Assembly (NCBI GenBank): GCA_016748015.1
Contig: JAAOMT010000372.1
Coordinates: forward strand, 806,001 to 870,000
Length of the DNA stretch: 64,000 nt
Source: Geosiphon pyriformis uo1
Lineage: Eukaryota > Fungi > Glomeromycota
Reading direction: 5' to 3'
Shown piece after piece: positions 1-59,006 of the stretch. How positions within the stretch are numbered: the first letter of the stretch is position 1; every line of letters starts with the position of its first letter. A program made the translations under genes and the position numbers. The notes beneath the pieces were generated by a model that ran no database searches, was not told where the DNA came from, and worked only from the letters and a program-made list of their open reading frames with translations.

Positions 1-89
1 TCATCATTCAGTATGCTAATTCCAAACTATTTGTGCTTGATTACAAGGCTACTGTTAGCTTTAGTATTGCAGTTTTAAATAAGTCTATT

Positions 90-1874
90 ATGGAGCCTGG
101 CTTTAATATTGGTGTCAAGTCTGCTGAGTCCAGAAAGAAAAAAAAAGGTGGTGTTTTGGAAGATAATATTGGTAATAAAAAATTCATTGCTGCTAAGGTA
201 TCAAGTAGTTATTTTTGGGATTCTAAAACTGGTAATACTACTAAATCTGATAGTGTGGATATGGAGGAGGAATGTTTAGTCGAAGAAATCAGCTTTAATC
301 ATGGGGATGATAAAGCTTTTGCTGGAGAGAACTTAGAGCAAACACCTAAAAGTTTGAAGATTCTTATCAAGAAGATACTTGGAAAGCCACTGAAGAAAAT
401 TAACTTCTTGGATGATGATATTAATGATATATTTTTGGACAAACCTGTGGTTTTCCCTCCCTCTTTCAAGAACTTGGTCAATGTCTCTGTTAAAAAGTCT
501 TTTACTTTGAACATCAACTTAGAAAATATTGTTGGAAAATCTGCTCAGAAAAAGCTTGTGGTTGTCAGAAAATTGTTTTCAAAAATCAATGGTTTTGGAG
601 AGGCCTCTACCCCCTCAAAATTTGCTGGAATTGTCAGAGCAATGTTCACTTCTGAATTGAGTTTGGCACAGGCTTCTAAAAAGGCTAAAAATGCAAAAAT
701 CTTAGTAAACTCCAATCTCAAAAGATTATCTGGACATTCAAATCGGGCTGTGGTATTAAAAAAAATTCTTGTTGGAACATCAACTAAGGCTGTGCATGCT
801 GTGCTATCTGGTTTTGGTATAGTAATGTTAATCAAAATACAGTTGGTGGGTTTGTGGCAGAAGGCTATAGTTGAATTTAATAAGAGTAAATAAGCTGATT
901 TAGTCGCAGCTTGTTGGTTTATCCTGATTGAGAAAGATGCTGTGTGTGTGGCCAGGGCTGATCAAGACAAGAAATTATGAGACATAAGAGATCAACATAG
1001 GGCTTTGCTCTATACTTTGCCAATAGGAACAACTGCTTATGACATTTGAGATTATATTGGCTCTGTGGATAGAAAAACATGTGCAATAGATTATTATCCT
1101 GTTACATATGCTCAGACCAGATGTGCTGTTGTTTGTTTTGAATCAGTCAATTCCTTGAATGCTGTTATGAGAACTACTCTAGTTTTAAGAGGTGTGAATA
1201 TGCATTGGTCTCTTTTGAGTTTTTCTAAATATGCTAAGTATGGGAGATTGGGTCATATATCTTTGGGCTGTGCTGTGGATGAGAATCTTTCCTCTGGGAA
1301 ACCTTCTTGCAAACCTTTCTTAGACATGGATAAAAGCAGATTGGCAATCATCTATGCCAAGCATTCAGCTCCAATTGCTTATTCTATTGCTTTTAGTGGA
1401 GTTTCTTAAACAAAAATTGCTGGTGGAAATGGTTTTTTTTCTTTCTTTGTGCGAAAAGTGTCGATCAATTCCAGCTCCTCTTTGGAAATGAAGCCTACCC
1501 TTTCTGATATGAGTAATGTTGAAAAAAGGTTTGCTGTTTTGAAAAGCAGTCTTGCCAGCCTCGCAGGACAAATTAGTGAGTTGGCTAAGAGGTTAGACTC
1601 ATTTATGCCAGCAGTTTTCCAGTCTAGTCCTGGATGTCAGCTGTTGATGACCACTCCATCACAGAATTGGATGGGTAATGTAGTGATGGGAGAAAATTTG
1701 GGTAAGACTACAAGTGGTAAGACTGCTATGACTTTGGACTCTTCTGCTTTTCCTGAAGTAAAAAGATTGAAAAACATGTTGGAAAGACTTTTTGCTTTGG
1801 TTTTAAGTCTTATAGCAAAGTTTGATGGTTTAATTTTGGCTGGTAGTGTACTTTTTAAATCTTCTTTTCAATGA
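90..1874 (+). pseudogene. LINE ORF1 (gag-like nucleic-acid-binding protein) with in-frame stops
   Basis: ORFs 33-893, 1065-1409 and 1449-1874 share one frame. Degenerate CCHC knuckle (YAKYGRLGHISLGC, ~1230-1270) and a C-terminal coiled-coil (RFAVLKSSLASLAGQISELAKRLD). Confidence 0.75.
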
Positions 1875-4439
1875 CCAATCTAGTTTAGAAGATTGCCACA
1901 TACAATATTAGGGGTTTGAATAATCCTGTGAAACAAGATGATGTGATTTGTTGGCATAAAGAGATGAACAATTTGATTTTTATTGTTACTAAAACTAAGT
2001 TAAGGGGCAAGATCTGCCCATGGATCATGAATAAATTTAATGGTATCCAGGTTTTCACTTTTGGTTTGAACTCTGGTCATTTGGGTTCTGGTATTGGGAT
2101 TATTATGGACAATTCTTTGGTAAAACATGTATATAAGATTTCTGAGGTTTCTGGTTGACTCCTCTCTCTCAAGTTACTCTTCAAGAATAATCTTTCTGTG
2201 TCAATTTTGGGACTCTATGCTGGTGCTTTGTTAGTGGTTTGGTTCTTTCAGACTGGTAAAATCAACTCTCTCATTGCAAAAGCAGTGAATAAGTCCTCTT
2301 TTGTTATTTTGGATGGTGATTTTAATGAAAACAGAGCCCAAAAGTGTGCTAGCTTCAAGAAGTGTTTTGATTTGGGTTTAGTTAATTCTCTAAGGGAAAG
2401 TTTGTTTGTCAAGATGCCTATGTGAACCAATTTTTGTGGTGTTGCTAAAGCTCTCGATTACATTCTTATTTCTTTATGTTTGGTCAATACTATAATAGAT
2501 GGTAGTGTGGCCAATATTAAAGACTATTTTAATACCAATCACAAAGCTGTTTCTGCTTCTATGAGTTTGGGTGGTTTGTTCAATATCTATTTGAGTTCAA
2601 TACACAAGCAGGCAAATAAGAATTGCTGGAAGTTTGATGTCAAAAGTGCGGATAAAGCAATTTGGAGTGAATTTAAGGATGCTACTACAGTTAATGCTGC
2701 TATGTTCTTGGACAAGTTTGAGTCAGCCAAGAAGTTCTCTGATCTGAATGCTATGTGAGATATTGTTTGCAAAGTGATGATTTTTTCAGCTAATGGTACT
2801 TTCAAAAAGAAATGGTTTAAGAATTATGATGGGGTGTTTACCAAAGAGTCTTCCAAGTTGCATAACTTGGAGATTTTGGTTTCAAAAATTGTCAAGGCTT
2901 CTTACGAAGCAGGCTCTGGCAGGTTTGAGTTTCTGTTAAGATGCTGGGTTTCTTTGAATAATGACAAAGCTTCTGTTGTTTGGGATCTTGTGAGTTTTGA
3001 TGCGAGTTTGGATTGTGTTTGTTCTGCTTTTTGTGATGTGAAGAGGTCTTATCATGCCTCTAAACTTGCTGAGTCTTTGCAAGCCGAGGAGTCAGGCATT
3101 AGATCAGCTATTGAAAAAAAGATAGAGAGTTTTGTGATCAACAAAGGCCATACAATCTATAGTGTTTTAGAATGTCCATTCCACAAAGTGGTGTTAGATC
3201 ATTTGGTTTCTGATGGTGGTTTGATTTTGGATCCAATAGAAGTTAAGAATAAGGTAGATGATATAATGAAGGGCTGGATGAGGAAAAGAGCCATGCTAAA
3301 AAGTGTTCCCGATTTGTAGCAGCATTAATATCTGCCATTAGATTATGTCAACAATAATGCTTTTTCTGGTGTAATAAATGCTATTAGTTTGGATAACTTA
3401 ATGTGTGTGATTAAAGATTTACCAAATAGTAAAGCTGCTGGCTTGTCTGGTATTTTGAATAAACTTTGGAAACATTGTGATGGTTTTGTGCTAGGCTTGC
3501 TTCTGGATCTTCTGAACATTTGTTTAGTGTGCGAATTAGTTTTCCATTGTTGGAAAAAAGCTTGGATGTTAATGATCCTCAAGCTCTATGAATAGGAGGG
3601 TGTCTTGACAAATACTAGACCAATCGCTTTAATTGAGACTGCTTGTAAGATTCTTTTTAAGTTGCTGTCTGACAGAATTTTGTCAGTGTGCAGTCTATTC
3701 AATATACTTTGTGAGGACAATTTTTCTGTGCTTAAGAGCACTACCACTCAGTCTCCTATTTTTGCCATTGGTTTGGTTGTTGAAGACACTTTGGAGAAGA
3801 ATCGTGAACTTTGGCTTGTGCTGTAGGATATGCATAAAGCCTATGACTTTGTGGGTTGGTATCACTTGTGTAATAATTTGATTCAGATCAAAATGTGCAG
3901 GTGTTTTATTGGATTTTTTGGTTCTATTCACAATGACCGTGTTAATCAGATTATGACTGATTTTGGTCTAACTAATGAATACCAGGTACATAATGGTCTT
4001 GATCAGGGTGAGGTTTTTTCTCCTTTGCTGTAAAGGATCTTTTATGACCCCCTTCTGTGTGAGATCAAGAAACAGAAAAGCTTATGTGAATACCAAATTG
4101 ATATTAAATTTGTAGTTAGAACAGGTAAAATAGAAAACCAAGGCAGTTTAACTTTGTTTTTGGCTGCTAGTGTGTTTGTAGATAATACTATTTGGGTGAG
4201 TAGCAATCAGGCTGCCACTCAGTATATTTTGAACACAGCAAGTGAATTTTTTAGAGTAAATGACATTTCTATCAATAATGAGAAAACTGTAGCCATTTCA
4301 ATCAATCAGAGAATTGGTAATACATTATTGTCAATTAGTGGTTTGCCAATTTCAATTGCTTGTAAGAAGGAGTCTCATCAGTATCTTGGCATTTATTTGT
4401 CATTTAAGAGTTTGTCCAAACCCAGTTTGGCTAAGGTGC
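1871..4439 (+). pseudogene. LINE ORF2 5' part: AP endonuclease and reverse transcriptase
   Basis: APE motifs IATYNIRGLN, ILDGDFNE, LDYI, TNHKAV; RT motifs KAAGLSG, TRPIALIE, DMHKAYDFV, GLDQGEVFSPLL, FVDNTIW, YLGIYL; many stops. Confidence 0.9.
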
Positions 4440-5293
4440 TGTTACTCATAGAAATATAGGAAATATATTAGCATAATCATTAGCCAATCAGAAGTAAGCA
4501 TAGTAAATGTGAAATTCCAGAATTTCTCTCAGGAATTGCAGGATTCCAGAAATTTCAGGATTCCCAACGAGGAATTGCAGGATTCCAGAATTCCAAGATT
4601 CTTCTCAAAAGAATTGCAGGATTTCAGAAATTTCAGGATTCCTGTCATAAAGAATTGAGGAATTGAGGAATCCCAATTATGTATATATAACAGTAGTGTT
4701 AGAAACAGAAAAGACAGAATCCTTAGCCTAGAAATGCAATCATCAAATAAATAATTATTTTATATCTCCATCTACTTCCCACTATTAACCCTTTATGTTG
4801 ATAGTAAGTGATACTTGATCACGCTAGAACAATAGCTCTTGATTATGGCTATTGACGGAATACTAATCTGCAAATCGCCTTGGCTTATTTCTTTTCTTTC
4901 TTTATTTTCTTTTATTTCTTTTTCTTTATTTTATTTTGATTTGTTGTTGTATACTAATTGATTAAAGATTAAACGCTGAGTTATTGACGTCAAGGATAGC
5001 CTGGTAAAAGACCCAGAAATAAGGGTAGAATTTTATATATTATCGGATAGCTTACTAGAAGAACACGACTGCCAGACTAAATCTGGCCACCACACTGAGA
5101 AAAAAATTGGGAAAACTCTTGGAAAATATATCTACTATCGACACTATTGAATCTCTGTCCATTATACAAAAGACTCAACCAAAACCTTCAGATCCATCAA
5201 AACCTTCAGATATTACCAACAACTTTATATCAATTAAGCACCAAGTTACAGGTTTGTTATTCAATTCAACAACAGAAATAATCACCTGTAACA
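4440..5293 (+). repeat. E1 5' LTR
   Basis: Direct repeat of 13692-14560; TG...CA ends; CCAAT ~4485, GGAATTCC-type array 4511-4675, TATATATAA ~4682, AATAAA ~4747. Confidence 0.96.
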
Positions 5294-5295
5294 TT

Positions 5296-5312
5296 TGGTG
5301 CTCTCTGTAAGG
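5296..5312 (+). other. E1 primer-binding site TGGTGCTCTCTGTAAGG (3' end of elongator tRNA-Met or tRNA-Ile(UAU) type)
   Basis: Begins with TGG 2 nt after the LTR; related PBS in E2, E3 and E4. The tRNA identity is from recalled tRNA ends and is unverified. Confidence 0.8.
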
Positions 5313-5355
5313 TATAATCCTACAGAGAACCAGCACTGACAACACCAAACCAAAA

Positions 5356-8300
5356 GTGGCAGAATCAGAAAACATAGAAGCAAACCATTTAGGATTCGCA
5401 AAATCCTTATTTCAATACTATTGTCAATATTTGGGATTAAATCACAATCATATATCTGCCGAATCAGCCTTTAATTTCTAAGTCAATGAAAAGATTTTCT
5501 CTTTATTAGGAACATCAGTAAATACTGAATCAGCAAGAGAAACTTTCTATAAAGAATTAATTCAAAACACCAACCTACCAACAAACCATAATTTTGCATC
5601 CATCATCACTGAGATCAACAAAGAAATTGAACACCACACTCAACAAAGATATCCAATTACATATGCTAGTAAAGGCAAGGGAAAATTACAAACACCAGTA
5701 TTAACACCCTGAAAAATACAGCCACCTGCTTGGAAGAAAAACAGAGTTGAATCCCCAAGTAACTCATCATACCACTATACACCTGGAAGCACCATCAACA
5801 TATCATTAACCGACACGTTTCCATCAACTGTGACATTAGCATTTGGATGATTCCCATTCCAAAGTAGACAAAGGAAAACAGAATTGTTAGGACCATACAG
5901 TAAATACTTTGAGGGATTTAATTCGCAATCATCAACTCCATCAGGACTTTGATCACTACCGCCTTCACCAGATTTCGGAATCTCTGATCTGTGGGAAGCA
6001 GCAGAATCAAAAAAAGAGGAAAAAAAATCAGAGGATCAAGAATTCACTTATCTACACCCAATCCCTAAAAACCTGGAAGTTGAAACCCCGAACATTCAAA
6101 CTCAGCAACAGTTAGAAAATCCGGAAATCGAAATTCTGAATATTCGAATGCTGCCAAATCCAAAAAATCAAAACCCCGAATTAATTAATCAGCAAAACTT
6201 ACCTCCAGTAATTGTTATCAATTAACTGCTGATTAATCCCATAGCCGAACTCATACAGCAGTCACTTCAGCTACCACCCCAACAGCCAGGACAACAACAA
6301 CTGCTTCAACAGCCACCACAACCACCTAACTTAGATCCAATGGCCTATGCACTAATTGCAAAACTTGACAACTTTACAGGCAAAGAGAATGACGCTTAAA
6401 TATGGCTGAATGATGTAGAAAAGGCCATCACAGCCAACGGATGGAATGACGCTCAAATAATGCAAGCCATTCCCTACTTTCTCAAGGATACTACCAATTC
6501 ATAGTACCAGAGCTTGATTAATAAACCACAAGATTTTAATGCCTTCAAAGTGGAATTCCTAAGATACTTCAGCAACAATAACAGCATCAATTGCCTAGTC
6601 AATGCATTTACCATCATGAAACAAGGAGAAACCAAAGCAGTTACCACTTACCTGGGACGCTTCCATCAAAACTTGCGCCAAATTCAAGCAATTGATGATG
6701 ACTATTTCACAGCACCACAGATACTCAACCAGTTTATCTGTGGCCTACGCAGTAGCATCTTGCAATATGTACATCCGTTGCATCCTGGCATGCTTTAAGA
6801 CGCAATTACATGTGCCAGAGATTTTGAATCTGCTGAGTCAAAGGCTAACCATGCCCAAGCCATTAATCTAGTAATGAATGGATTATCTGAATTGGATTCC
6901 AAATTGAAGAAGTTCAGTAAATCAATCAATAAGAGATTGGAAGGATACTTAGCTGACAATCACACCATTTATCAGCCTCCACAATGACACAATAATCAAG
7001 GAAATTATAATCGTGGTCAAAATCAACCACGTCCATCTTCATCAACCAATCAATAGTGGCAACAAGAAACACGTATCTGCTACTATTATGGTAAACAAGG
7101 ACATATCCAAATTGACTGTTGCCAGCATTTAAATAACCAATGATCAGAAAATCCATATCAAAGCCCTGATCGCCGGTTCCAAACTCCGAATCAGTACCCA
7201 AATCAAAACCCACCCACTTACCTACCAGTGACGCAGTCATCAGTCTATTAGTCTCCAGTATATCAACCTCCAATTTATCAGCCGCAGCCACAAGTAATAT
7301 ATCAACCACAGCCACAAATAATTTATCAACTCCAACAGATCCAAACACTGCCCCAAAACTTACCACCCAACAGAACCCAAAGACTGAGAATGACTCAACA
7401 GAGCTGGAGATTGGCAATGGTAGTTCATCAACCAATCCCCAGTTCTTCACAGCAACCATCTGGATTACGCCAGCAGAATTCAGGTACTGGTCAACCCCAG
7501 AACTATTTAAGTCTCCTGGTCACCCCAGAAGACACTTCAACCAATAACCTGGCATTTACCCAAAAACAACAACTCACCAGTAATATCCCACCTGCTACTA
7601 TCACTAAAGACGAGTCATTGGCCGCTATCTTCCCATTCAAATTCGAGAAAACAGCCACAATGCCATTGTTTAGTGGAGCTGCTCTTGAAGCCAAACTAAT
7701 TACCACAATGTACACTGACACCAAAGTCGAAGGACAATTCATCAAATTGATCCTGGACAGTGGTTTTGCAGGCAGCATAATCACAAGACAACTCATGGAT
7801 CAATTAGGTCACCAAGTTAATCGAGCTGCCAGCGCCAGAATCATCACAGCTGATGGAGCGACCAAAACTCCAATCGGCGAAATCGACGACTTTCTTTTTG
7901 AAGTCAATGGCATTGTGACTTCTATTAAAGTTCTAGTAATGGAAGCCACTCAATACCAAGCTCTTATTGGTAATGACTGGCTATTCAAAGTCAACACAAT
8001 GTTAGACTGGAACATCCAGGAACTCCAGCTAATGTATCAGGGCCAACACATACGTGTCTTGGCCAGGTGTGGCCACTTCAAAACTCCTCCAAGAGAGAAA
8101 CTATTGATCGAACTAAAGGAGGAGAAAAAAAAGCTGACCTGGGAAGCCTATCAAGTGTTGTGGGTGGATGAAGAGCACAACAAACTACTGCTCATACTCT
8201 CCTAAGATGACAGCAACAAGGGAAAAGGAAAACAAAAGGAAGAACTTACCTGGGAAACTGATGACCTGACATGGACTGACAACGATGAAAGCGAACTGAC

Positions 8301-11300
8301 TTCAAGCTGGGAATGGGAAGAGGACAAAGAAAATAAAGGAAAAGGGAAAGAAGAAGAGCCCACCCAAACCATCACCGCCTATAATAATACCTATACTATT
8401 TCACAATGATCTATCTATCATTGACCTAAGCTTATATGCATCAATTGTGGCAAGAAATTGTCATTAATGGGTGCATGCTGTGGTGATGATGAGGAATACC
8501 ACACCACAACAAAATTCTACTGTCGTTCATGCTTACTCGAACACTTCAGACAACCAAAGAGGCAAGGAAAATGGGATAACCAACTGTGTCTCGCTTGTGA
8601 GGAGACCCTGCTAAATGAAAGGATGTGGAACAACATCCTAGGACATGGAAAAACATGTGACACATCGTGTCAATACATGATTCTAATAAGTGATTGAGTA
8701 AGGAAAGAAACCCCAATAGAAGCAGCCTGGAAAAGAGCTGTGCAGCAACTAGACAGTTGTCCACATGATGACAATGAAATTTGGCAAATGGCATTTGCAA
8801 AAATCAAAGGGGCGATGCCAGAAGAGATAAAAACAATCAAAGACAACTCCCCAGAACTTTTAAAGCTTGACTGGGACACAGAACCCATCATAAACCTCTT
8901 AGATCCGGAACAATTCCATGAACACTACCAAGAATTAGCACTCACAAGGGAAGAACAAAAACAATGGTTAGAGCAGTTGAACGCTTGACTATGTCAATAC
9001 TGCCTAATTCCCTGTGACTTCCAGTACTGTAATAAGTGTGACCTCATTTACAATCCACCACTATGCATGATCTATTCGATCCCTGAAGAAGAACCAATCA
9101 GCAGCTGCACATCAGAATCAGAATTGCTGATCAATCACAATTCAAACTCCAACGATGACAATGATAACAACGGTTCAAGCTCCATTCAAATTGGCAATGA
9201 TGATGAAAACAATTTAGACTCAGATTCAAAACCCAATGTAAACTATGAACAATACATTGCACTACCAGATCTCTCCAAGGAACAAGAGTTGAAATGGTAT
9301 AGTGACAATGGAGAAGGTATTATGCCAGAACGTGCGCATGACATGGATGCAGGGTTTGATCTGAGATATCCAGGAAAAGATGCCATCAAATTAGAACTGC
9401 ATTCACGCACTTGCATTGATCTGAAAATAGCACTAGAAATTCCGGCAACAACAATGGTTCAATTAGCATCTAGGAGTAGTTTAGCAAAAAGAGGGATCAA
9501 TATAAGAGGAGGAATAATTGATGCAGGATATGTAGGAAATATCATCGCCATGCTACAAAATAACTTAGAAAAAGCCTATATAATAGAGCCTAATGAAAAG
9601 ATAGCACAGGCAATATTTCTGCCTCTGATTAAAGTACCTCAGTTAGTGTCAGTGGGAAAGAGGAAAGAATTGGGAATAACAGCAAGGGGAATACAAGAAT
9701 TTGGATCAATGAGTAGAATAGAGGTATCAGTTAATATGGCGGAGGAAGAGATTGTTGGCCAAGAAGAAATTATCTCAACTGGTCAAGCTATTTCCATTCC
9801 ACCATATAGCCAGTACATGTTAGCAATAGAAAGGAAGGAAAAGGAGCAAGAACAGATTTTTGAAGTGGAAGCAACCCTTTGTGAATCAGAAGAGATTGGG
9901 TTGATCAATCTCCACATACCAGCCAAAAGCTATAGCAGCATAAAAATTCCCATCTACAACAACACTGGCAATATCATCAACATACCAGAAGGAACCATCA
10001 TTGGATATCTAACCATAGAAATAGAAGACCAACCACCAAACTCCATTCCAGACTTTTCACAACTTTGTGGATATGTTGACATCACATCACAGACAATCTA
10101 TGGACGAGATAAATGTTATTTGCTCCAACCAGAACAATTGGAACAAATGAACATGGGAAACTTAGATCCACTCCAATATATGCAGCTCAAGATATTACTC
10201 AACAATTTCAACGACATCTTTGCCAGCGAAAATAAGTTTGGCCAAACTGACATCATCCAGCATCAGATCAAGACTGGAGATGCAATGCCAATTAAACAAA
10301 AAGCATACAGAGTGCTGCCAGCCAGCCATAAGATTATTTGTCAAGAGATAAACAGAATGCTTGACAATGGGTTAATTCAACCATCAATAAGTCCATGGTC
10401 ATCACCAGTAGTACTTGTCCATAAGAAAAATGGAAAAATCCAGTTTTGTGTAAACTACAGGAAACTCAATGGTGTAACTCGTGGAGACAGTTATCCAACT
10501 CCACAAATACAGAAATTATTTGATGCTTTTGGTGGGAACAAATGGTTTTCTACATTAGATATGGACAGTGGTTACTGGCAAGTAGCCATGAATCCAACTG
10601 ACAAAGAGAAGATGGCATTTACTACTAGAGAAGGGAATTTCGAATTTGAAATAATGCCATTTGGCTTAACCAATGTCCCAGCAACTTTCCAATGGCTAAT
10701 GGAAATCATTTATACTGACTTATTGTAGAAATTAGTAGTTGTATACTTGGACAACACCAATGTATTTTCAAAGACATTTGATGATCATCTTCATCATCTT
10801 CAATAAGTGTTCGAAAGACTGAGAAGAGCAGAACTGAAGTTAAATGCGACAAAATGCTTCTTTGGCAAGACGGAACTCAAATTCTTGGGATACATAGTTA
10901 GCAAAGATGGCATCAAAACAGATCCAGAAAAAATAAAGATAGTAAAGAACTTTCCAGTGCTGACCAATATAACAGAACTGAAATCATTCTTAGAATTTGC
11001 CAGCTACTATCGTCGTTTTATCAAGAACTTTTTCAAGATAGCACAGCCACTCAATCAACTACAAAACAAAAATGCAAAATATGAATGAACAGAAAGTCAA
11101 CAAGAAGCTTTTGATATTCTGAGGAAAAAGCTCATCCAAGCTCTAATACTAATCTATTCAGATTACAGCAAACCATTCATCATCACCACTGATGCATCCA
11201 GCCAAGCATTGGGAGCAGTATTATCTCAGAGAGAACTGAACGGCAGGGAACATCCAGTAGCATATGCCAGCAAAGGTTTAACACCAGCCAAAAAAAACTA

Positions 11301-11547
11301 TGGAATACCAGAACAAAAACACTTAGCAATATACTGAGCCGTCATGAAATGGAAAGAATACTTGAGCCAGAAGTTTGAAGTATACACAGATCACAAAGGA
11401 TTAACATCACTCCAAAAACAAGAATTTGGAGATGGAAGACAGTCAAGGTGGAAAATGGCACTTACACTATACAATTATACTATACATTACAAAAAGAGAA
11501 AAGACAACGGAAATGTTGACGGTTTATCGTGAATAAGACAAATCTAA
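5356..11547 (+). pseudogene. E1 single-frame Gag-PR-Cys-rich-dUTPase-RT-RNaseH polyprotein with in-frame stops
   Basis: All fragments (6514, 7390, 8458, 8740, 9067, 10807, 11344) share one frame. Capsid from ATG 6340; CCHC ~7078-7120; protease LILDSG ~7748; dUTPase ~9300-9715; RT (PWSSPVVLV, LDMDSGYWQV, YLDN); RH (TDAS, YTDH). Confidence 0.93.
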
Positions 11548-11610
11548 GAACATTTCAACCCAAAAATATAATAAAACCAGAACAATACCAACAGAAAAAT
11601 ACAACAAAAA

Positions 11611-12993
11611 ATGAACATACAAAAATATCAACAATTGCAACATTATCTAAACACTCAACAGTTCAAGGAGAATTTATCTCATACGGAATGAAGGAGTATC
11701 AAACACCAATCAAAATATTTCATCACTCACCAAAATATACTTTATCAGAAAAATAGAAGGGATCCAGATCAACCAACCAAAGTAATTATGGAGCCAGAAA
11801 AAGAGACAATATTATTCAACATGCACTCAAATCCAACAGCAGGATATTTTCACAAAGAAGCAATCATGGAAAGAACTAGAAAAAGATACTATTGGCCATC
11901 AATGTACCTAGACATTATTCAATATGTTCAAAATTGTGACACTTGTTAGCGAAGAGGAGAAACAAGACCCAGTGAACCATTAAGACCAATTAAAGTGGGA
12001 CAACCATTTGACTGTATGAGAATTGATTTAGTAGGACCATTAACAATCACCAGCAGAGGAAACAAATACATAGCAGTAGCTATGGACTATCTCACTAAAT
12101 GGCCAAAGGCGAAAGCAATTCAAAGAGTGGATGCAGAATCCGTTGCCGAATTCATTCATCAGGATTTGATTTGTCAACATGGATGTCCAAAAGAATTATT
12201 ATCAGACCAAGGAACTCATTTTGTGAACAGAACATTAACAGAATTGAGCCAAAGATTCAGAATCAAGAGACCATTATTATCATCATACTATTCACAAACC
12301 AACGGATTAGTAGAAAGATTCAACAAAACATTGTGTGAAACAATAGCCAAGCTCAGCCAAGAAAACCAGAATGATTGGGATTTGTTCATACCATCAGTAC
12401 TATTTGCTTATTGGACAACGAAACAAGATACTACACAAGCAACACCATTTGAATTAGTATATGGGAGAATAGCAACGTTATCAGTAGAGAGAGAAATTAA
12501 TACATATCCAGCTAAACCAATAACAGAGGGAAATTTTCAAGAAACATTGCTGAGAAGAACATATGACTTAATGGAAACATTGGAAAACAAATGAAGAAAA
12601 GCAGCTGATAATATCCAAAAATCACAAGAAACACAGAAAGAAAGACACGATAGTCAACTACCAGACAAACCAGTTGAATTCAAGATTGGAGACAAAGTAT
12701 TACTACATTGTACCAAAGCAAAAAAACAATGGAGTGAAAAATTTGACTCCAAATGGGACGGATCATTTCACATAGAAGAAATTCTAGGAAATGAAGCTTA
12801 CAAATTAAGATTGGATAACAAAATTTTAACCAAAGCAGCACATGGAGATTGACTGAAACCATATCATAACATTACACTACTATCTACCAGTAATATTTCA
12901 CAATTAGGAGTACAGAGAATACTAGTCCAACCAGATGAGATTCCACGAGATCAGGAACCAATCATTATTATCGACAACAACACATTAAATTGA
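11611..12993 (+). pseudogene. E1 integrase, separate ORF (HHCC, DDE core, GPF/Y motif)
   Basis: MHSNPTAG..CDTC; IDLVGPL, SDQGTHF, NGLVERFN; KWDGSF; own ATG after the stop at 11545. Confidence 0.92.
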
Positions 12994-13006
12994 TCCATCA
13001 AAAAAA

Positions 13007-13013
13007 TATATAA
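13007..13013 (+). promoter_or_regulatory. Putative internal TATA box for ORF3 (also 25820 in E2 and 28169 minus in E3)
   Basis: TATATAA lies 41-42 nt upstream of the ORF3 ATG in all three complete elements despite divergent flanks. Confidence 0.6.
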
Positions 13014-13047
13014 GGACATGGTAGACGTGACAGGAAATATCAAAAAA

Positions 13048-13677
13048 ATGGAAATTACAGACAACATTTACTCACTAGTACAACAACTCTTTCAATTAAT
13101 CCAACACCAGGAAATGGAAATTACAATCAATCAACAAACCATTCAATATCAAGATACTAGAAAGACATTTCAACTCAGAACACAGAAGAAAACTGAAAAT
13201 CCTGTGGACAAAATCATGGCAAAAGTAAAATTAGCAATAAAAGAATTGACAAAAGAGTCACTATATCAAGAGTTGACTAAAGAAACTTGGAATTGGTGGA
13301 TACAACAATTTCCACGAAACTATTGTTATTTTTACTTAGGACAACATGTAAATATACAGAATCTATATACGAATAAGACAAAGCAATTATTCGGCAAAAG
13401 AATACTACAACAATTAAAATATTTTTTGGGAAAAAACAACTTATCCACACAAGCCCAAGCCATATACCAAATACACACAGTATTTCAAGATAAACCAGAA
13501 ATATTGCTCAACAGAGCAATGGATATGGTGACCAGTAATCAATTGGGAAAAATCACCAATGCTTAATTTGAAAAATTACAGGCCCAAATAACACAAGTAA
13601 TTCTCAAAAACAAAATCCAGGAAATACTTCAAGAGGGGGAATTACAGGAGTTAGATTTCGATGGAACTCAATATTAA
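13048..13677 (+). pseudogene. E1 ORF3, unknown ~209-aa soluble protein (one premature TAA)
   Basis: Lies between IN and PPT; ends LDFDGTQY* abutting the PPT; homologues in E2 and E3. Confidence 0.85.
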
Positions 13678-13691
13678 AAAGGAGGGAATAA
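13676..13691 (+). other. E1 polypurine tract
   Basis: AAAAAGGAGGGAATAA immediately before the 3' LTR; equivalents in E2 (~26495-26510) and E3 (~27485-27499 minus). Confidence 0.9.
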
Positions 13692-14560
13692 TGTTACTCA
13701 TAGAAATATAGGAAATATATTAGCATAATTATTAGCCAATCAGAAGTAAGCATAGTAAATGTGAAATTCCAGGATTCCTCTTAAGAATTGCAGGATTCCA
13801 GAAATTTCAGAATTCCCAATGAGGAATTGCAGGATTCCAGAATTTTAGGATTCCTCTCAAAAGAATTGCAGGATTCCAGGAATTCCAGGATTCCTGTCAT
13901 AAAGAATCGAGGAATTGAGGAATCCCAATTATGTATATATAACAGTAGTGTTAGAAACAGAAAAGACAGAATTGATACCACAGAATCCTTAGCCTAGAAA
14001 CACAATCATCAAATAAATAATTATTTTATATCTCCATCTACTTTCCCACTATCAACTCTTTATATTGATAGTAAGTGATACTTGACCATACTGGAACAAT
14101 AGCTCTTGATCACGGCTATTGACGGAATACTAATCTGCAAATCACCTTGGCTTATTTTTTTTCTTTCTTTATTTTCTTTTATTTCTCTTTCTTTATTTTA
14201 TTTTGATTTGTTGTTGTATACTAATTGATTAAAGATTAAGCGCTGAGTTATTGACGTCAAGAATAGCCTGGTAAAAGACCCAGAAATAAGGGTAAGATTT
14301 TATATATTATCGGATAGCTTACCAGAAGAGCATGACTGCCAGACTAAATCCAGCCATCACGCTGAGAAAGAAATTGGGAAAACTCTTGAAAAATATATCT
14401 ATTATCGACACTATTGAATCTCTGTCTATTATACAAAGGACTCAAACAAAACCTTCAGATCCATCAAAACCTTCAGATATTACCAACAACTTTATATCAA
14501 TTAAGCACCAAGTTATGGGTTTGTTATTCAATTCAACAACAGAAATAATCACCTGTAACA
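13692..14560 (+). repeat. E1 3' LTR
   Basis: Direct repeat of 4440-5293, with an extra ~15 bp between ACAGAAT microhomologies. Confidence 0.96.
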
Positions 14561-14564
14561 GTAT

Positions 14565-16660
14565 ATACAGATGTCAGGTTTTTTGTCAATTTGGTTCTTA
14601 AGAAAGCTATTTTGAACAAGCAGTTTCTTTATCTAGTGTTAGCTGTATTACAATCCATTATTAGTTATAGGACTCAGTTTAGCTTTGTTTCTAAGAATGT
14701 GTGTACAAAGTGGGATACATTGATTAGGAGAGAGTTGAGACTTAAGACTGGTCTTCCGAAAGACTTTTCCAATGAGGCTCTTCACCATCTTTTATTGTAT
14801 AGCTTGAAATCTTTTGAGCAGTTGCAGACTAAGTGCAAAGTGGCTTTTGTGTTGTGTTTTTCAAATGCTAGTGATGTTTTTGGTCACTTGTTCAATCATA
14901 GGTCTCTGGATTTTCAGGTTTTGGGTTGGTCACTTATTAACCCTTTATGTTATCTAATTAGGTTGCATATCAGTCTGGTCAATAATTTTTTGGCAGGTGT
15001 CATTAGGATTTTTTTGGACTATGACATGTCTCTTGACAATTTTTCTGTTTTTGTGTTCTACTTTCTTGGTGGAACACTAATATCTACAGTTCTGGGCACT
15101 TTTTTGTTTTATAATGTTTCTTTTTTTCTCAAAAAGTTTGAAGTTGTCTTTGCCAAGCAGTTATATACCAAAAAAGATTTAATTTTCAATTGGAAAACCT
15201 TCCATTGTTAGAAGAGACTCAATCTGAAGGGCTCTGTTCCTCATTGGTTCACTTTGGTTTGTGACTTTTTGGATCAATCTTTTATTTCTGAAAATTTGTG
15301 TGTTGAAGATTCGCAGATTATGGATGTTTGCAGTTTGGGTGCAGTCTCCAGATTGGGCCAGTGTCTCTCTTCTGTAAATATAAGAGTTATTAATGTTTAT
15401 ACTGATGGATCATTAAGAGATTTAGGTTCATGTGAAATAAAGTGTGGTGCTGCTGCTTACTTCTCAGATTTAGATCTGGATATTGGTGCTAAAGTTGGTG
15501 GATTGGTATTCTTGACTATGACAGAACTGCAGACAATTGCTTTGGAGTGTGTTTTTTCTGACAGTTCAGTGGTGATTTATTTAGACAGTCAGGCTGTCTT
15601 GGATGCATGTGTAACTGAATCTGCTTTGGTGTCTCCAGATTTCCACAACCACTGCTGGATGGAATGGCATGGCATTGTTAATTTGATTAGGAGAAAGCAG
15701 CTTAATGTTTCTTGGCATAAGATGAAAGGACATTCAGGTGTTATAGGTAATGAGTGTGCTAATGAGTTAGCCAGTCTGGCTGCGAACTTTTCTTTGGCAC
15801 TTCCTGTTTTGGTTAAGGAGAGATTTATCAAGACTGGCAGGGTGGTGGTGTCTAGGAACATTTATCATTTTGCTTATGAGATTTTCAGGTCTGTTAATTA
15901 TGTTTGTTAGAAGGTTGGTCTTGGTTTCGATGTTATTGATGATAGTTTACTTGGTAATGTGGACTGGTTTTGTATTGCTGTGGTATAACACCCTGACTCT
16001 CATATGATGACTGGCTTTACCAGTAAATCTATGAGTAGTTTGTGCTCTTATTTTTTAAAGACCCTCCACTACTGTCTCCTGGTTGCTGTATGGAAGCATT
16101 TGTATAATAAGATCTATCTGAGTGTCTTGTGTCTGTACTGTGGTGAAGTAAAAAGTTCCGACCACTCCTTTGTTTGTGTATTTGACTCAAAGCATTCTCA
16201 GGTCTTATCTGGCCAAGTGGCATTATGTTTCTGAATTGGGCTTACATTCATCTTGTGTTTTACAAATGCTCTTTTTGTGCACATTTGATGATATGTTGTA
16301 TACTACTGTGGGCAAAAGCTTTGTGTTCAGAGATTGGGTTCAGGAAGCTTCATCCATTCTGGGTAATGCCAAGGTTGCGAAAAAGTTTATTGTTGATTTT
16401 GTTCGAGAATTGGGTGCTGCTCACCACATAAATATTTGGTTGGTTAGAGCTAAATATCAGGCTTTAATGGAAAAAGGCAGTTTAATTCCACTTGATGATT
16501 CTGTGTATTCTGTAATTCGTGGTTTATTATGTATGTTTTCTGCTGAAGTAATTAGGTTGCTTGGGATTGCTGAAGCAGTTAGTGTTTGCTTTGGTTTTTG
16601 TAAACATTGCTGTTTTTTTCTAATATAGATGGTATGATTTCAGTTCTAATAGATTCATAG
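14565..16660 (+). pseudogene. LINE ORF2 3' part: RNase H and C-terminal zinc finger
   Basis: RNase H motifs VYTDGS, ELQTIAL, YLDSQA, KMKGHSGVIGNECANELA (15254-15910); CLYCGEVKSSDHSFVC zinc finger at ~16130. Confidence 0.88.
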
Positions 16661-17202: not shown

Positions 17203-18123
17203 TGTTACTCATAAAAAAAAAACAGATATAGAGAAAATAGTAGACCAATAAGTGAATAGTATTTAGCACATGAGCACATTGTAGCAATATAAAGCAATAA
17301 CAAAAATCACAGCACATTGCTCAGCAATGTGGAACAATATTAGAAAGCATAACACATTGCTCAGCAATGTGGAGCAATGTTAGAAAATTAAGGCACATTG
17401 TTCAGCAATATGAGCATTGCTCAAGAAATCATAGCACATTGCTCAGGAATGTGAGCAATCTTGTAAAACATCAATTATATATATATAGTAGTAACATTAG
17501 AAGTAGAAAGAACAGAATCCTTTAATTAAAGATCTTTCAGTTTAGATTTTATCTAAGCAACTTTCCAAATTCACAAATATCAATAAATAATTATTCTTTA
17601 TCTTAAATCTCTTCTTCATTATCAACACTTCATGTTGATAGTAATTAATACTTAAACTACACTGAAACAATAGCTCTTGATTATGGCTATTGATGGGAAA
17701 CTAACTTGCAATTGTTTTTGCTTATTTCTTTATTTTCTTTTATTTTCTTTTATTTTCTTTTATTATTTTTTTTATTATTTCTTTGGTTTTATTAAATTGA
17801 TTAAGGATTAAGCACTAAAATACAGACGTCATAGGGACTGGTAAAAGACCCATAAAACAAGAATAGAATACTCATAGATTTGAAAATAGCTTACCAAGAG
17901 GATTATCAGCCACCATGCTGAGAAAAAAATTTGACAAAACTGTGGTTTTGGGAAGCTATGGATAAAACTATTAATTAAAATTTCTGTTTATTATACAAAG
18001 AACTCTGCAACAAAACCTTCAGATAAACCACACTTTCAGATATTATCAACATCAACAAATCAATTGAGCACCAAGTTACAGGTTTGTTATTTGCTTTGAG
18101 ACTTCAAATAAACACTTATAACA
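17203..18123 (+). repeat. E2 5' LTR
   Basis: TGTTAC start; CCAAT; CACATTGCTCAGCAATGTG array 17265-17460; TATA ~17476; degenerate PBS follows at 18126. Confidence 0.94.
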
Positions 18124-18185
18124 TTTAGTATTTCCTGTGAAGTATAATCTTACAGAGAACCAGCACCAACAGCAATCATCCAAAA

Positions 18186-21100
18186 GTGGCAAAATCAGAA
18201 AACATAGGAGCAAACCATTTAGAATTCACCAAATCCTTGTTTCAACAGTACAGCCAACAATTAGGATTAAACAATAACTTTTTTCCAGCAGAATCAGCCT
18301 TCAATTTCTATGTTAATGACAAAATCACAGACTGCTTAGAAGGAACAGTTAACATTAAATCCACAAGAGAAAATTTTTATACAGAATTATTTCAACATAC
18401 CAGTTTACCAAGAAATTATAGTTTCACACCAATCATCAGGGAAATCAATTAAACCATTGAAAGATACACACAACAACAATTCCCAATTACCTATGCAGAC
18501 AAAAAAAAGGGAAGAATACAAACACCAGCAGTGACACCAAAACAAATACAACCACCTACTTGAAAGAAAACCAGAGTTGAATCACCAACAAATCCATTAT
18601 ACCATTACACTCCAGGAAGTGCTATCAACATCTCATCAACAAACATGTCCACATCACACGTGACATTAACATTTGAATGACTCTTATTTCAAAGTAAACA
18701 AAAAAAAGCAGAATTACTAAGAACCTACAATGATTATTTTGAAGAATTTAAATCATGATCACCAATGCCATCAGAATTCCAATCACCACCACCTCAACCA
18801 GATTTTGGAAACACAAGTCTCTGGGAGATAACGGAATCAGAAAAGGAAGAAAAAAAAGAAGCTGAAAATCAGGAATTTACTTACCAGAATCCAATTACAG
18901 AAAATCCAGAAATAGAAACCCTGAATATTCAAACCCAGCAAACTCCGAATAATCTAAACCCCAAGTTAATTAATCAAAAAAACATACTTCCAGTAATCAT
19001 TATTGATCAGCCACCAATTGTACTAATATTGAAACCAATTCCACCACAGCCACCACAGCAATCTATTCAACCACCACTACAACAACCACAACAACTGATT
19101 CAACCGCTACAACCACAATTTCAACAACTTCCACAACAATAAATCATAGCACTAATAGTATATGTTCTTATTGCCAAACTTGAAAAATTTACCAGCAAAG
19201 AGAATAACACTCAAGTGTGACTAAACAATGTGGAGAAAGCCATTGCAGCCAATAGATAGGATAACACCAGAGTCATGCAAGCCATTCCCTATTTTCTCCA
19301 AGATACAGCTGACTTATGGTATTAAAGCTTGGTTAACAAACTCCAAGATTTCAATGCATTTAAGCTTGCATTCCTACAATACTTCAGCAATAATAATAGT
19401 ATTAATCGGCTAGCAAACACTTTTACCACTATCAAACAAGAGGAAAATGAAGCAGTCATTACTTACCTAGAATGCTTCCATAGAAATCTGCACCAAATTC
19501 AAGCAATCCAAGCTGACTATTTTACAGTGCCACAAATACTAAACCAATTTATTAGAGGTCTGTACAGTAGCATCTTCCAATGCATATGCCCAATACATCC
19601 AGTAGACCTTCAAGCCATAGTTACCAATGCCTAAGATTTTGAAGCAACTAAACTCAAAGCTAATCATGCCCAAGCCATGAATCTAGTAATGAACGGATCA
19701 TCTAAATTGGATTCCAAATTAAAACAATTCAGTAACTCAATTAATCAGAAATTAGAGGAATACTTAGCTGACAATCACACAATTTATTAATCTCCTCAAT
19801 GATGCAATATTCAAGAAAATGCAAATTGTTTCTAGAATTAATCGCATCTATCTTCCTCGACCAATTAACAGTGACAGCAGGAAATGCGTGTTTACCACTA
19901 CTGTGGTAAACAAAAACATTTAAGAATTGACTGTAGGTTAAGAATAGATAACCAATGATTGGAAAATCAATATCAAAACCCCGATCACTGGTTTCCAACT
20001 TCAAGTTATCAATCCAACTCAGCACCATATCAACTGACTTATCTGCCAATGATGCAACTGCTAATATATCAACTATCTGTATATCAACCTCCAGTCTATT
20101 AACCACAGCCACCAGTAATATATTAACCACTGCAGCCACAAATTGTTTATCAGACACCTGCAGTTCAAACACTGCCATCAAACCCAGCTCAAATAACATC
20201 AGAAAACTCCAGATCAAGAGTTATCCAAAACTGGAAATTGGCAATGGTTGTTTACTAACTGATTCCCAGTTTATCTAACCAGCCATCAGAATCACGACAG
20301 TGGAATTCAGGAACTTGGTATACCCAAGACTGGAGTTTTCAGAACTATTTAAGTTTCCTGGTTACTCCAAAAGATGCCCAACCCAATAATCTGGAAACCA
20401 ACTAACAATCAACACTTATCAACAATATCCCACCAGCAACTATTTCCAATGACAAATTTTTAGCAGCTATTTTTCTTTTTGAATTTGAGAAAATCATACA
20501 CATTCCATTATTCAGTGGAGCCACTCTTGACACCAAACCAATTATCATCATGTACACTAATGTAAAGGTTGATAGTCATGCCATTAAACTAATACTAGAC
20601 AGCAGATTAGCTGGTAGCATCATTACACAACAACTTATAAACCAATTAGGTCACCAAGTTGATCACACTGCTAGTGCTCGTATAATCACCACTGATGAGA
20701 CAACCAAAACTCCTATTGGCAAAATTGATGACTTCTCTTTTGAAGTCAATGGCATCATCATTCCCATTAGAGTTCTAGTAATAGAAGCAACTTAATATCA
20801 GGCATTAGTAGGAAATGATTAATTATCTAAAACCAATGCCATACTTAATTGGACGATGCAAGAGCTTCAACTCAGCCAAAATGGCCAGCACACATGAGTA
20901 TTTGCTATGTGTGAACACTTCAAACCCATCACTATGCCATCAGCCCCACTTATCAAATTTGAAAAAGAAAAAGAGAAACCTACCTGGAAAGCCTACCAAG
21001 TCTCTTAGACCAATGAAGACCACAACAAACTACCACCAATACTTTCTTGGAACAATAATAGAAAGAGAAAAAAAAAAAAAGAACTTACCTAAAACGCCAA

Positions 21101-24100
21101 CCAAGACTGGAAAACTAACAACAAAAACGAACTACCAACTTGGAAATGGGAAAAAACCAACAAAAAAAAAGGAAAAAGGGAAGAAGAAGATCTAACCAAA
21201 GGAACCACCACCACAAAAGAAATAACTAGTGGCTGGAAAAAAGAATACTCATGGGAACTGATAAAAGAGCCATTATATATACCTCTCAAATGCAAAGACT
21301 GTGGAAAAAAACTTTCTTTCATGAGAGCTTAGGTGGCACCAGATGAAAACTACTGGATATGCACACATTATTACTGTAAGCCATGCCATAGAAAACGATA
21401 TGGATACCCAAAATGTTAAAAAAAGTGGAACAATGAACCATGTCTTACTTGTGGTGAACAGTTGCTCAATAAAGAAATGTGGAATGACATTTCTGGATAA
21501 AGAGGAATGTGCAATGCATTATGCCAATACATGATCCTCATCAGCAATTGGGTAAGTCATGGAATGCCTATTATGGCATTTTGGCACCAAGCAATCAATT
21601 ACTTGGATGGGTATTCACATAACAAGAACAAAATTTGGTGTATGGCCAATGCCAAAATCAAAGGAGCCATGCCCAGTGAAATCTTAGAGATCAAGAACAA
21701 CCCACCAGAACCAGTTAACATTGTCTTCATCCCAAACCCAGATGTTTTTTTCGACATAAAGACAGGTCCAGAGAAGTTTCATGAGCACTACTAGAACTTA
21801 GCACCCATCAGAAAAGAACAAGAACAATGCTTAGAAAAAATAAACACCCAATTATGTGACCACTGTTTGATTCCATGTAACTTTCAATATTGTAATGAGT
21901 GTAATCTCATTTACAATCCACCAACATGCATGATCTACACAATTTCCAAAGAGGAAGAACCAATCAACAACTGCACATCAGAATCAGAATCAATTTTCAA
22001 TCCCAATTCAAACTCCAACAATAATGATGATGAAAATAATGGTTCCAGCTCCACTCAAAATAGCAACAATTTTAACTCAGATTCAAACTTTAATTCAAAC
22101 CTTGAAACATATATCGCACTTTTTAATCTTATCAAGGAACAAGAACTGAAATAGTTCAGCGATAATAATGAAGATATCATGCTTGAATGCATGCATGATA
22201 CTAATGCAGAGTTTGACTTGAGATATTCAAGAAAAGATCTCATCAAATTGGAACCACATTTATGCACTTGTATTGATCTAAAAATAGCACTAGAAATTCT
22301 AGCAACAACAATAGTTCAACTAGCATCCAAGAGTAGTTTAGCAAAAAAGGAGATCAACATCAGAGAAGAAATAATTGATACAAGATATGTAAGAAATATC
22401 ATTGCTATGCTACAAAATGACTCAGAAAAAACATATGTCATAGATCTAAATGAAAAGATAGCACAGGCAATATTCTTATCTCTGGTAAAAATAGCTTAGT
22501 TAGTGCCAGTGAAAAACAGAGAAGAATTAGGGATTACAGCTAGAAGAATACAGAGATTTGGATCAATGGAGAGAATAGATGTACCAGTTAATATGGCAAA
22601 AAAAAAAGTTATTGACAAAGAAGAAATTATCTCAACCTGTTAATCAATTTCTATTTTATCATATGACCAATATATGTTAGTCATAAAAAGAGAAGTAAAG
22701 AATCAAGCTTAGTTGTTTAAAGCAGAAGCCACCATTTGTGAATCAAGAGAGATTAGACTCACTAATCTTTACATATTAGCCAAAAGCCCCAAAAATATCA
22801 AAATTCTCATCTACAACACAACGGGAAATGTCATTGAAATACCAAAGGAAACTATCATTGAATATTTAACCACCAAAGTTGAGGATTAACCACCAAACCA
22901 CATTTCAGATTTTCCACAACTGTGCAAATATGTGGATATCACATCATAAACAATCTACAAACAAGAAGAATATTATCTGCTCCAGCCAAAACAATTGAAA
23001 CAGATGAATTTAGGGAACTTAGACCCACTTCAATGAATGCAACTGAAGATGTTACTCAATAATTTCAATGACATTTTTGCCAGTGAAAATGAATTTGGCA
23101 GAACCAACATAATCCAGCATCAGATTAAGACTAGAGATGCAATGTCAATTAAACAAAGAGCATACAGAGTACCACTAGCCAGCCATGAGATCATTTGTCA
23201 AGAAATCAATCAGATGCTTGACAACAGGCTAATTCAGCCATCAATGAGTCCATGATTATTACCAATAGTACTAGTTCGAAAGAAGAATAGAAAAATTCGT
23301 TTTTGTGTAGATTATTGAAAGTTGAATGGAATAACCAAAGGAGATAGCTATCCAACTCCAAAAATCCAAGAACTATTTGACACTTTTGGAGGAAATAAAT
23401 GGTTCTCAACACTGGATTTAGATAGTGGTTACTGACAAGTAGCCATGGATCCAGCTGACAAAGAAAAAACAGCATTTACTACAAAGGAAGGAAATTTTGA
23501 GTTTGAAGTCATGCTATTTGGCTTGATGAATGTTCCAGCCATATTCCAATGGCTTATGGAAATTGTCTATATTAGACTACTATGGAAATCAGTAGTCATA
23601 TACTTGGATGACATCAATGTGTTCTCAAAAACATTCAATGATCATCTGCATCATTTCCAACAAGTATTCAAAAGGTTAAAAAGAGCTGGATTGAAACTAA
23701 ATACAACCAAATGTTTTTTTGGAAAAACTGAACTCAAATTTTTGGGACATGTGATAAGCAAAGATGGAATCAAAACAGATCCAGACAAGATTAAAGTAGT
23801 AAAGAACTTTCTAGTACCAACCAATCTAACAAAACTAAGAGCATTTTTGGGATTTGCAGACTATTATTGCCGCTTTATCAAGGACTTTTCTAAACTAGCT
23901 CAGCCATTCTACCATCTACAAACCAAGAATGTGAAGTATGAATGGACCAAAGCTCAACAAGAAGTGTTTGACATATTAAGAAGAAAACTTATCCAAGCTT
24001 CAGTATTGATGTATTCAGATCACAGCAAACCATTCATAATTACCACCAATGCATCAGGCCAAGCATTGGGAGCAGTACTATCACAAAGAGGATCAAATAG

Positions 24101-24404
24101 AAGAAAACATTCAGTAGCTTATGCCAGTAGAAGCTTAAGTCCAGCTGAAAAAAATTATAGAACTCTAGCATTAGAGTATTTAGCTATCTATTAAGCCATC
24201 ACCAAATAGAAAGAATACTTGAGCCAAAAGTTTGATGTTTATACTGATTACAAAGGATTGACTTCAATTCAGAAACAAAAATTTGGAGATAATTGTCATG
24301 TGAAATGAGAAATAGTACTATTACTATATACATTTACAGTACACTATAAAAAGGGAAAAGACAATGGAAATGTTGACGAATTGTCGCGAATGAGACAAAT
24401 CTAA
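18186..24404 (+). pseudogene. E2 Gag-PR-Cys-rich-dUTPase-RT-RNaseH polyprotein, decayed
   Basis: Colinear with E1: LILDS protease ~20590, dUTPase ~22150-22570, YLDD ~23601, ends RQI*. Confidence 0.92.
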
Positions 24405-24434
24405 AAACATTTTAACTCAAAAATATAACAAAAA

Positions 24435-25800
24435 ATGAATATACAAAAATATCAACAACTCCAACATTATATAAATACTCAACTGTTTAAGAAAAAACTA
24501 TCTCAAAAGGAACAAAACAACATAAAACAACAATCAAAATATTTTATCAACCACCAAAATATACTGTACCAGAAAAACAAAAAGAACCCAGATCAACCAA
24601 TCAGAGTAATTACAGAACCAGAAAAAGAGACAATATTGTTCAACATGCACTCAGATCCAACAGCAGGACATTTTCATAAAAAAGCAACCATGAAAAAAAC
24701 CAGAAAGAGATACTATTGGCCATCAATGTATCCAGACATCATTTAATATGTTCAAAATTGTAATGCTTGCCAAAGAAGAGGAGAAGTGAGACCAAATGAA
24801 CCATTAAGACTAATCAAAGTGGGACAACCATTTGATCAAATTGGAATTAATCTAATTAGACCATTAACACTCACCAGCAGAGGCAACAAATATATTGTAG
24901 TAGCCATAGACTATTTTACAAAATGGCTGAAAGCAAAAGCCATTCAAAGAGCAGATACAAAATTTGTTGTCAAATTTGTTCATCAAGATTTAATTTGTTA
25001 ACATGGATGTCCAAAAAAACTATTATCAGATCAAAGAACTCACTTTGTAAATAGAACATTAGCAAAATTAAGTCAAAGATTTGGAATAAAAAGACCATTA
25101 TCATCACCATACCATCCATAAACAAATAAGTTAGTTAAAAAGTTTAACAGAATATTGTGTAAAACAATCACCAAAATCAGTCAAAAAAACCAAAATGAAT
25201 AGAATTTGTTTATACCATCAGTATTATTTGCTTATCGAACAATGAGACAAGATACTACACAAGCAACACCATTTGAATTAGTATATGGTAGAACAGCAAC
25301 ATTATCAGTTCAACACATATTTAACTAAACCAATAACAAAAGCTAATTTCCAAGAAACATTGTTGAGAAGAACATATAACTTAATAGAAACACTAGAAAA
25401 CAGATAACAAAAAGCAGTTGATAACATTCAAAAGTCTCAAGAAAAGCAAAAAGAATAACACAATAACCAATTACCAAATAAACCAGTTGAATTTAAGATT
25501 GGAGACAAAGTACTTCTATATCGTACCAAAGTGAAAAAACAATGGAGTAGAAAATTTGACTCCAAATAAGACAGACCATTTTACATAGAAAAAATTCTAG
25601 GAAATAGAGCTTATAAATTAAGATAGGACAACAAAATATTAGCCAAAGCAGCATATAGTAATCAACTGAAACTATATCACCAAATAGTATTATCATCTAC
25701 CAATAATATTTCACAATTGAGAGTACAATGAATACTAATCCAACCAGATGAAATTCCACGAGATCTAGAACCAATCATAATTATCAGACTAAACATGTAA
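24435..25800 (+). pseudogene. E2 integrase, separate ORF
   Basis: MNIQKYQQL start, MHSDPTAGHFH..CNAC, DDE core. Confidence 0.9.
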
Positions 25801-25861
25801 AATCAAACAATAAAAAGAGTATATAAAGACACAGTATATGCAACAAAAGCAACCAAGAAAA

Positions 25862-26496: not shown

Positions 26497-26510
26497 AAAG
26501 GAGGAGATAA

Positions 26511-26761
26511 TGTTACTCATAAAAAAAAAACAGATATAAAGAAAATAATAGACCAATAAGTAAATAGTATTTAGCACATAAGCACATTGCAGCAATATAG
26601 AGCAATAACAGAAATCATGGCATATTGTTCAGCAATGTGGAACAATATCAGAAAGCATGGCATATTGCTCAGCAATGTGGAGTGATATTAGAAAATTAGG
26701 GCACATTGCTCAGTGAGCATTGCTTAAGAAATAATAGCACATCACTCGGAAATGTGAACAA
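26511..26761 (+). repeat. E2 3' LTR, U3 part
   Basis: Matches 17203-17458; preceded by the PPT. Confidence 0.93.
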
Positions 26762-36733: not shown

Positions 36734-36737
36734 GCGA

Positions 36738-58964: not shown

Positions 58965-59006
58965 TTTGGTGCTCTCCCATGAAAATAACACAGCAACAAA
59001 TTCAAA

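Follow-up and report, generated by a model that had tools for sequence, protein, structure and literature searches.

Transcription of long terminal repeat (LTR) retrotransposons is usually thought to depend on host factors. Sense additional open reading frames (ORFs) that lie 3′ of pol, ahead of the 3′ LTR, are described in plants (aORF-3S/env-like; PMC7264820) and, in a figure legend, in fungal Gypsy elements ('add. ORF', function unknown; PMC2864245). The foamy virus protein Tas has response elements in the internal promoter as well as in the LTR promoter (PMC517496). VANC of the Arabidopsis VANDAL transposons is an anti-silencing protein with DUF1985/DUF287 domains, whose targets were demonstrated by chromatin immunoprecipitation and electrophoretic mobility shift assay (PMC5735166), and CERV of the C. 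elegans element Cer1 is an accessory regulator, made from a spliced mRNA, for export of genomic RNA (PMC10309623). The sequence analysed here is a 64-kb window of the Geosiphon pyriformis genome (contig JAAOMT010000372.1), in which three related LTR retrotransposons, E1, E2 and E3, were delimited by self-comparison; an accessory ORF, ORF3, lies between integrase (IN) and the polypurine tract (PPT) of each.

By kind, ORF3 belongs among the sense additional ORFs of this region, between pol and 3′ LTR. It resembles the additional-ORF elements in position, orientation, presence in most copies and separation from gag-pol; the likeness to the fungal 'add. ORF' is one of position and description. ORF3 lacks the membrane segment of the plant env-like ORFs, hence is not env-like, and differs from the additional ORFs in having several coexisting types tied to different arrays in the unique 3′ (U3) region. 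With Tas/Bel1 it shares a place 3′ of pol, a candidate internal TATA box and, in an element outside the window (L001), a motif that occurs upstream of the gene and again in U3; unlike the case of Tas/Bel1, E1–E3 have no shared upstream motif, the host is a fungus, env is absent and binding and activation are putative, and no sequence relation was found. VANC likewise is an accessory protein encoded by its element and outpaces the transposition enzymes in divergence, and VANDALs likewise have family-specific tandem arrays differing between related elements, in a host where elements decay by transitions; however, VANDALs are DNA transposons and the VANC domains were not found in the Pfam lists for ORF3. 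CERV is comparable, by description only, as a novel accessory regulator in an LTR retrotransposon. Judged from the Pfam lists and BFVD, ORF3 is not a homolog of Tas or VANC, and by analogy may work like either. In the literature searched, no fungal gypsy element was described as encoding a DNA-binding regulator of its own.

We propose, with a probability of about 0.4, that ORF3, expressed from an internal promoter, is a regulator that binds U3 and most likely activates its own LTR or shields it. ORF3 would be transcribed from a promoter between the IN stop and its ATG; as a helical protein it would recognise the repeats in the U3 of the element that encodes it; and binding would cause activation or anti-silencing of that LTR. 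ORF3 and U3 pass between families as a single block.

ORF3 as a protein family

13048–13677 (+): ORF3 of E1, type A1; 209 codons, single internal stop at 13564–13566; 88 % identity to the intact P0005
25862–26496 (+): ORF3 of E2, type B; three stops and a frameshift near 26440; 77 % identity to the intact P0124
28127–27498 (−): ORF3 of E3, type A; six stops

The position of ORF3 is as given in an earlier note made from the sequence alone; the frame described there is not open, since all three copies carry stops. The motifs listed in that note (QQLFQ, ELTKE.W..W..QFP, CYxxLGQ, IYQxHxxFQ, DFDGxQY*) were found in the window copies, partly decayed, and a hydrophobic segment is indeed missing: the maximum Kyte–Doolittle mean over a 19-residue window is 0.36–0.69 in the window copies and at most 1.33 in 16/16 rows, a hydropathy check of which a dedicated signal-peptide predictor was not part.

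Every one of the 119 non-self matches to ORF3 of E1 is a protein named as from Geosiphon pyriformis, and both type A and type B include intact copies (P0005 and P0124, respectively). Among 1.84 billion representatives, a profile search found 94 matches; ten were looked up, of which eight were from G. pyriformis and two were unnamed metagenomic proteins. A search seeded with the metagenomic proteins retained 33 of 3004 candidates (three metagenomic, 30 from G. pyriformis, the latter a further type, E). The two types first claimed have thus become at least five (A–E) in this genome. Mutual identity among A, B, C, D, E and the metagenomic types M1 and M2 is 17–44 %, and 57–70 % among the sub-types A1–A4. 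Types C, D and E were available as proteins only, with the element context inferred from IN-fused gene models and PPT-encoded C termini. ORF3 ends just upstream of the PPT in types A, B and D, and continues through it into the first LTR bases in types E, M1 and M2 (L001, 3090–3148). Types E and M have an acidic tail (ELSLEEEIMLPD); because the PPT and the first LTR bases encode it, it was discounted as an activation domain.

No relatives were found in viral contigs, phages or a first metagenome scan. Sequence searches of the PDB gave three weak matches (E 0.34–0.53) in one case and none in another; scans of Pfam, PHROG and NCBIfam gave scattered matches below the curated cut-offs, none common to most members (best shared: the unnamed phrog_23683, 13/58). 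The Tas/Bel1 family was absent from the Pfam lists of 16 single proteins at E≤5, with no BFVD match at E≤0.001; DUF1985 and DUF287 were absent from the lists of the 16 proteins and from the best 25 of 69 families listed. Leads from the ESM Atlas were dropped for low recognition values and mutual disagreement (clusters with GCR1_C, 0.87–0.88, for P0002; unrelated sets, 0.89–0.92, for P0204). The evidence supports a genuine conserved, soluble, helical accessory protein family of a fungal Ty3/gypsy clade with at least seven lineages. The family is unnamed, without assignment in Pfam, NCBIfam, PHROG or the PDB.

L001, the contig of P0185, carries reverse transcriptase (RT), RNase H (RH) and IN; a non-coding spacer of 316 nt follows, then an ORF3 of 230 codons that is open and runs through the PPT, and finally an LTR. 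It bears on the idea that ORF3 is a C-terminal extension of IN, reached by stop read-through, with the TATA word as coding sequence (I-Y-K). ORF3 of E1 does follow IN in the same frame behind one stop, and an in-frame ATG at 13018–13020 (+) lies 10 codons upstream of the conserved start at 13048; it begins 11 nt downstream of the first base of the TATA word, and many database gene models begin there. Against this, the frame is different in E2 and E3, the L001 spacer contains stops, and five other types begin at the position of 13048; this start was found in types B, C, D, E, M1, M2 and P0185. Because L001 has a non-coding spacer before an open ORF3, read-through is excluded as a general rule; we regard it as highly improbable, the L001 sequence having already largely refuted it. 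In DNA contigs of run X1 the IN tail is fused straight to the LTR start (12943–13692), so variants devoid of ORF3 exist.

Exchange of ORF3 and U3 arrays

13765–13927 (+): U3 array of type A in the 3′ LTR of E1; 39–40-nt period, GGAATTCC/GGATTCC units; 5′ LTR copy at 4511–4643
26590–26713 (+): U3 array of type B in E2; 40–41-nt period; 5′ LTR copy at 17273–17459
27325–27373 (−): U3 array of type A in the 3′ LTR of E3, shortened; 5′ LTR copy at 36498–36662
13936–13942 (+): LTR TATA word of E1, right border of the exchanged block

Arrays with a period of 39–41 nt are present in all six LTRs, one type in E1 and E3 and another in E2, as the earlier note had it; within the window both array words are confined to LTRs. 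The type B word, CACATTGCT-C-AGCAATGTG, forms a perfect inverted repeat (9+1+9), with half-sites (ATTGC..GCAAT) that we take to be reminiscent of bZIP sites. About 25–30 nt past the LTR TATA word, AAAGACAGAA occurs in E1 (13936–13975) and in L001 (3657–3695) as a candidate conserved start region.

Across gag, protease (PR), dUTPase, RT and IN the three elements are roughly equidistant (67–86 % nucleotide identity). The identity of E2 falls to 51–68 % in ORF3 and 46–48 % in the U3 array, and recovers at the PPT and past the LTR TATA word. The contrast drawn earlier is borne out: ORF3 of E1 and E3 is 72 % identical, that of E2 is 39–42 % identical to them, and IN is 81–86 % identical at the nucleotide level among all three. 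Third-position transversions between E1 and E2 amount to 52/181 in ORF3, 26/413 in IN and 54/489 in dUTPase–RT; between E1 and E3 the count in ORF3 is 9/181. The ORF3/U3 cassettes therefore split long before the integrases, which requires recombination beyond fast protein change alone. Identity profile and transversions agree that ORF3, PPT and U3 act as an exchanged block, as had been suggested. Contigs of run X1 across E2 and E3 contain 70 joints; seven of the 15 listed switch elements at the border of the IN tail and the TATA word (ORF3), and none at the PPT. This is weak evidence, because the regions are homologous and 15 of the 70 joints are listed.

In a tblastn comparison, eight of 233 proteins matched a U3 array. 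Five link an A1 C terminus to array A and one (P0166) links an A4-type C terminus to array B; the matches of P0105 and P0148 were dropped as chance, being short or of low identity and not placed after the ORF3 end. The claimed co-variation of ORF3 and U3 stands for the window elements (ORF3 and array both A in E1 and E3, both B in E2), and its simple rule is broken by P0166. ORF3 of type A4 is 63 % identical to A1 and 39 % to B. In the short helix that follows the putative recognition helix, A4 (S-I-T-I-N-Q) resembles B (T-I-T-I-N-Q), with M-V-T-S-N-Q in A1; to judge from these sequences, either the pairing is loose or specificity may lie in this second helix.

The block also suits a different role for ORF3, in which its target is RNA, the particle or silencing proteins of the host (as a Rev/CERV-like export factor or an RNAi suppressor), the U3 arrays are host-factor enhancers, and the two travel together as neighbours in one template switch. 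We consider this the main, though tentative, alternative, somewhat short of even odds. The contiguity of the block and the pairing of an A4-type ORF3 with array B favour it, as would the bZIP-like half-sites of array B, and CERV offers a precedent, being an accessory protein that works at the RNA level. On the other hand, the conserved PPT in mid-block could serve as a crossover site, yet has none of the listed joints, and ORF3 divergence between types far outpaces that of Pol, as expected for a specificity factor.

Candidate internal start, predicted fold and possible DNA binding

13007–13013 (+): TATATAA, candidate internal TATA box of E1, directly after the IN stop (12991–12993); putative promoter
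25820–25826 (+): TATATAA of E2
from 28169 (−): TATATAA of E3

In agreement with the earlier note, TATATAA lies 41 nt (E1) and 42 nt (E2 and E3) upstream of the ORF3 ATG. Position 13014 is A in the majority of run X1 contigs (73 contigs, depth 38960/40944), and TATATAAA is read at this site in most of them, in favour of the TATA word, as is its place directly behind the IN stop. The words are candidate signals for a putative internal transcription start of ORF3. In L001, the spacer contains a TATA word, TATAAATA, 126 nt upstream of the ORF3 ATG. The 7-mer TTGCCCT is present in two copies in this spacer and in three in U3, where an inverted 6-mer also occurs once, and is missing from 2.8 kb of coding DNA; it is the sole GC-rich word from an unbiased list of words shared by spacer and U3, and 0/1000 shuffles yielded such a word. 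The motif on both sides of ORF3 is a hint, by analogy, of the foamy virus Tas layout, and speaks against a purely RNA- or particle-level role.

The predicted fold is a helical bundle (H108–128, H133–148, H153–175, H184–189 and H192–229; P0204 numbering), in which a conserved Asn would open H153–175, followed by type-variable, often basic residues. Type A and B rows alone gave an uninformative fold, with a pLDDT of 46.7. The model bears a weak likeness to the DNA-binding domain of ParB/Spo0J and DUF1016-N in helix order, with Y-x-x-I-G, N and R-L-x-Y in register. The putative recognition helix is the same in A1–A4 and strongly different in types B, C, D and E. This weak ParB/DUF1016-N likeness would also suit an ORF3 that binds chromatin or a DNA site present in every type (PPT, LTR end) and serves to target integration or to control copy number; A1 and A4 share the putative recognition helix though linked to different arrays, and no chromodomain match was found in the C-terminal part of the L001 IN. 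The difference of the other types in this helix and the wholesale replacement of U3 arrays with the cassette argue against a common site, which we consider improbable.

Several points weigh against ORF3 as a regulator of its own U3. The P0166 mismatch, taken from a single spliced gene model, is one; the caveat of the earlier note that adjacency alone could explain the co-variation still holds. The array words are absent from the 340 nt upstream of ORF3 in E1–E3, and no significant match of ORF3 to any DNA-binding fold was obtained; both points also favour the RNA- or particle-level role. Foldseek searches with the predicted fold gave no matches. In profile–profile comparison, the likeness to DUF1016-N (YhcG N terminus) is borderline only (HH 0.53 %, E 0.11, 55 columns; score reached by 1/60 and 2/60 shuffles; nine sequences on the DUF side). 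Equally, TTGCCCT might mark a host-factor site or be left over from a U3 duplication. Conservation of TATATAA is weak evidence because decay is nearly all by transitions, sparing words of A and T only: all three copies retain 1077/1407 A/T positions but 340/691 G/C positions, which by our own arithmetic gives a chance of about 0.15 for seven consecutive kept A/T positions.

A wider proposition, that a fungal Ty3/gypsy clade, separately from foamy viruses and VANDALs, evolved a sequence-specific regulator that the element encodes and drives from a promoter of its own, and that whole regulator-plus-operator cassettes were swapped onto a common gag-pol to give at least five mutually insulated circuits in one genome, is less likely than not. 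Were U3 regulation by ORF3 true, the series of ORF3 and array types could explain the LTR expansion reported in Geosiphonaceae (PMC11952901) and would be a set of orthogonal protein–operator pairs. With natural ORF3 and array series in one genome, and intact copies, the question is directly testable. Even without DNA binding, ORF3 stands as an accessory family without a name, confidently modelled and with no solved fold close to it.

The elements and their surroundings

4440–14560 (+): E1, decayed Ty3/gypsy LTR retrotransposon; LTRs 4440–5293 and 13692–14560; gag, PR, dUTPase, RT, RH, a separate IN ORF and ORF3
13676–13691 (+): PPT of E1; PPT region 88–92 % alike among E1, E2 and E3
17203–26761 plus 36734–37393 (+): E2; 5′ LTR 17203–18123; 3′ LTR 26511–26761 plus 36734–37393, interrupted by E3
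36733–26762 (−): E3, within the 3′ LTR of E2; LTRs 36733–35884 and 27484–26762

Paired LTRs, TG..CA ends, target duplication, PPT and the order PR-RT-RH-IN are Ty3/gypsy features. The ends are TG..CA/TA in E1–E3, and the 4-bp target duplications are exact in E2 and differ by two transitions each in E1 and E3. E3 is inserted (26761/36734) between the U3 array end and the LTR TATA box of E2. LTR pairs are 89–94 % identical, and 203/208 LTR differences are transitions (47/48, 61/61, 26/27 and 69/72), which would fit decay of methylated DNA. All copies of E1–E3 are dead.

Pfam located the aspartyl protease (7390–8202), dUTPase with RVT_1 (9067–10725) and rve (12016–12591) on E1; RH was assigned by translation and tblastn with L001 only. 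The dUTPase (9250–9720) lies between protease and RT, likewise in all three elements, and is known in further fungal gypsy elements (PMC2864245). RNase H stops at the same place in E1 (11547–11615), E2, E3 and L001 (772–801), and in all four, beyond a spacer that differs in length and frame, integrase starts at an ATG of its own as a distinct ORF. A split pol is unusual among gypsy elements, and a literature search for it gave no clear description.

The flanks of E1 (1–3320 and 14561–16630) resemble, by eye, a non-LTR element with RNase H (ORF 15320–15910), into which E1 may have been inserted. A fourth, more distant gypsy element with dUTPase occupies 59000–64000 and ends at the window edge before IN and ORF3. 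The ORFs at 45352–46062 and 53256–53858 are presumably host genes, by eye a 3-hydroxyacyl-CoA dehydrogenase and a TLDc-domain protein.
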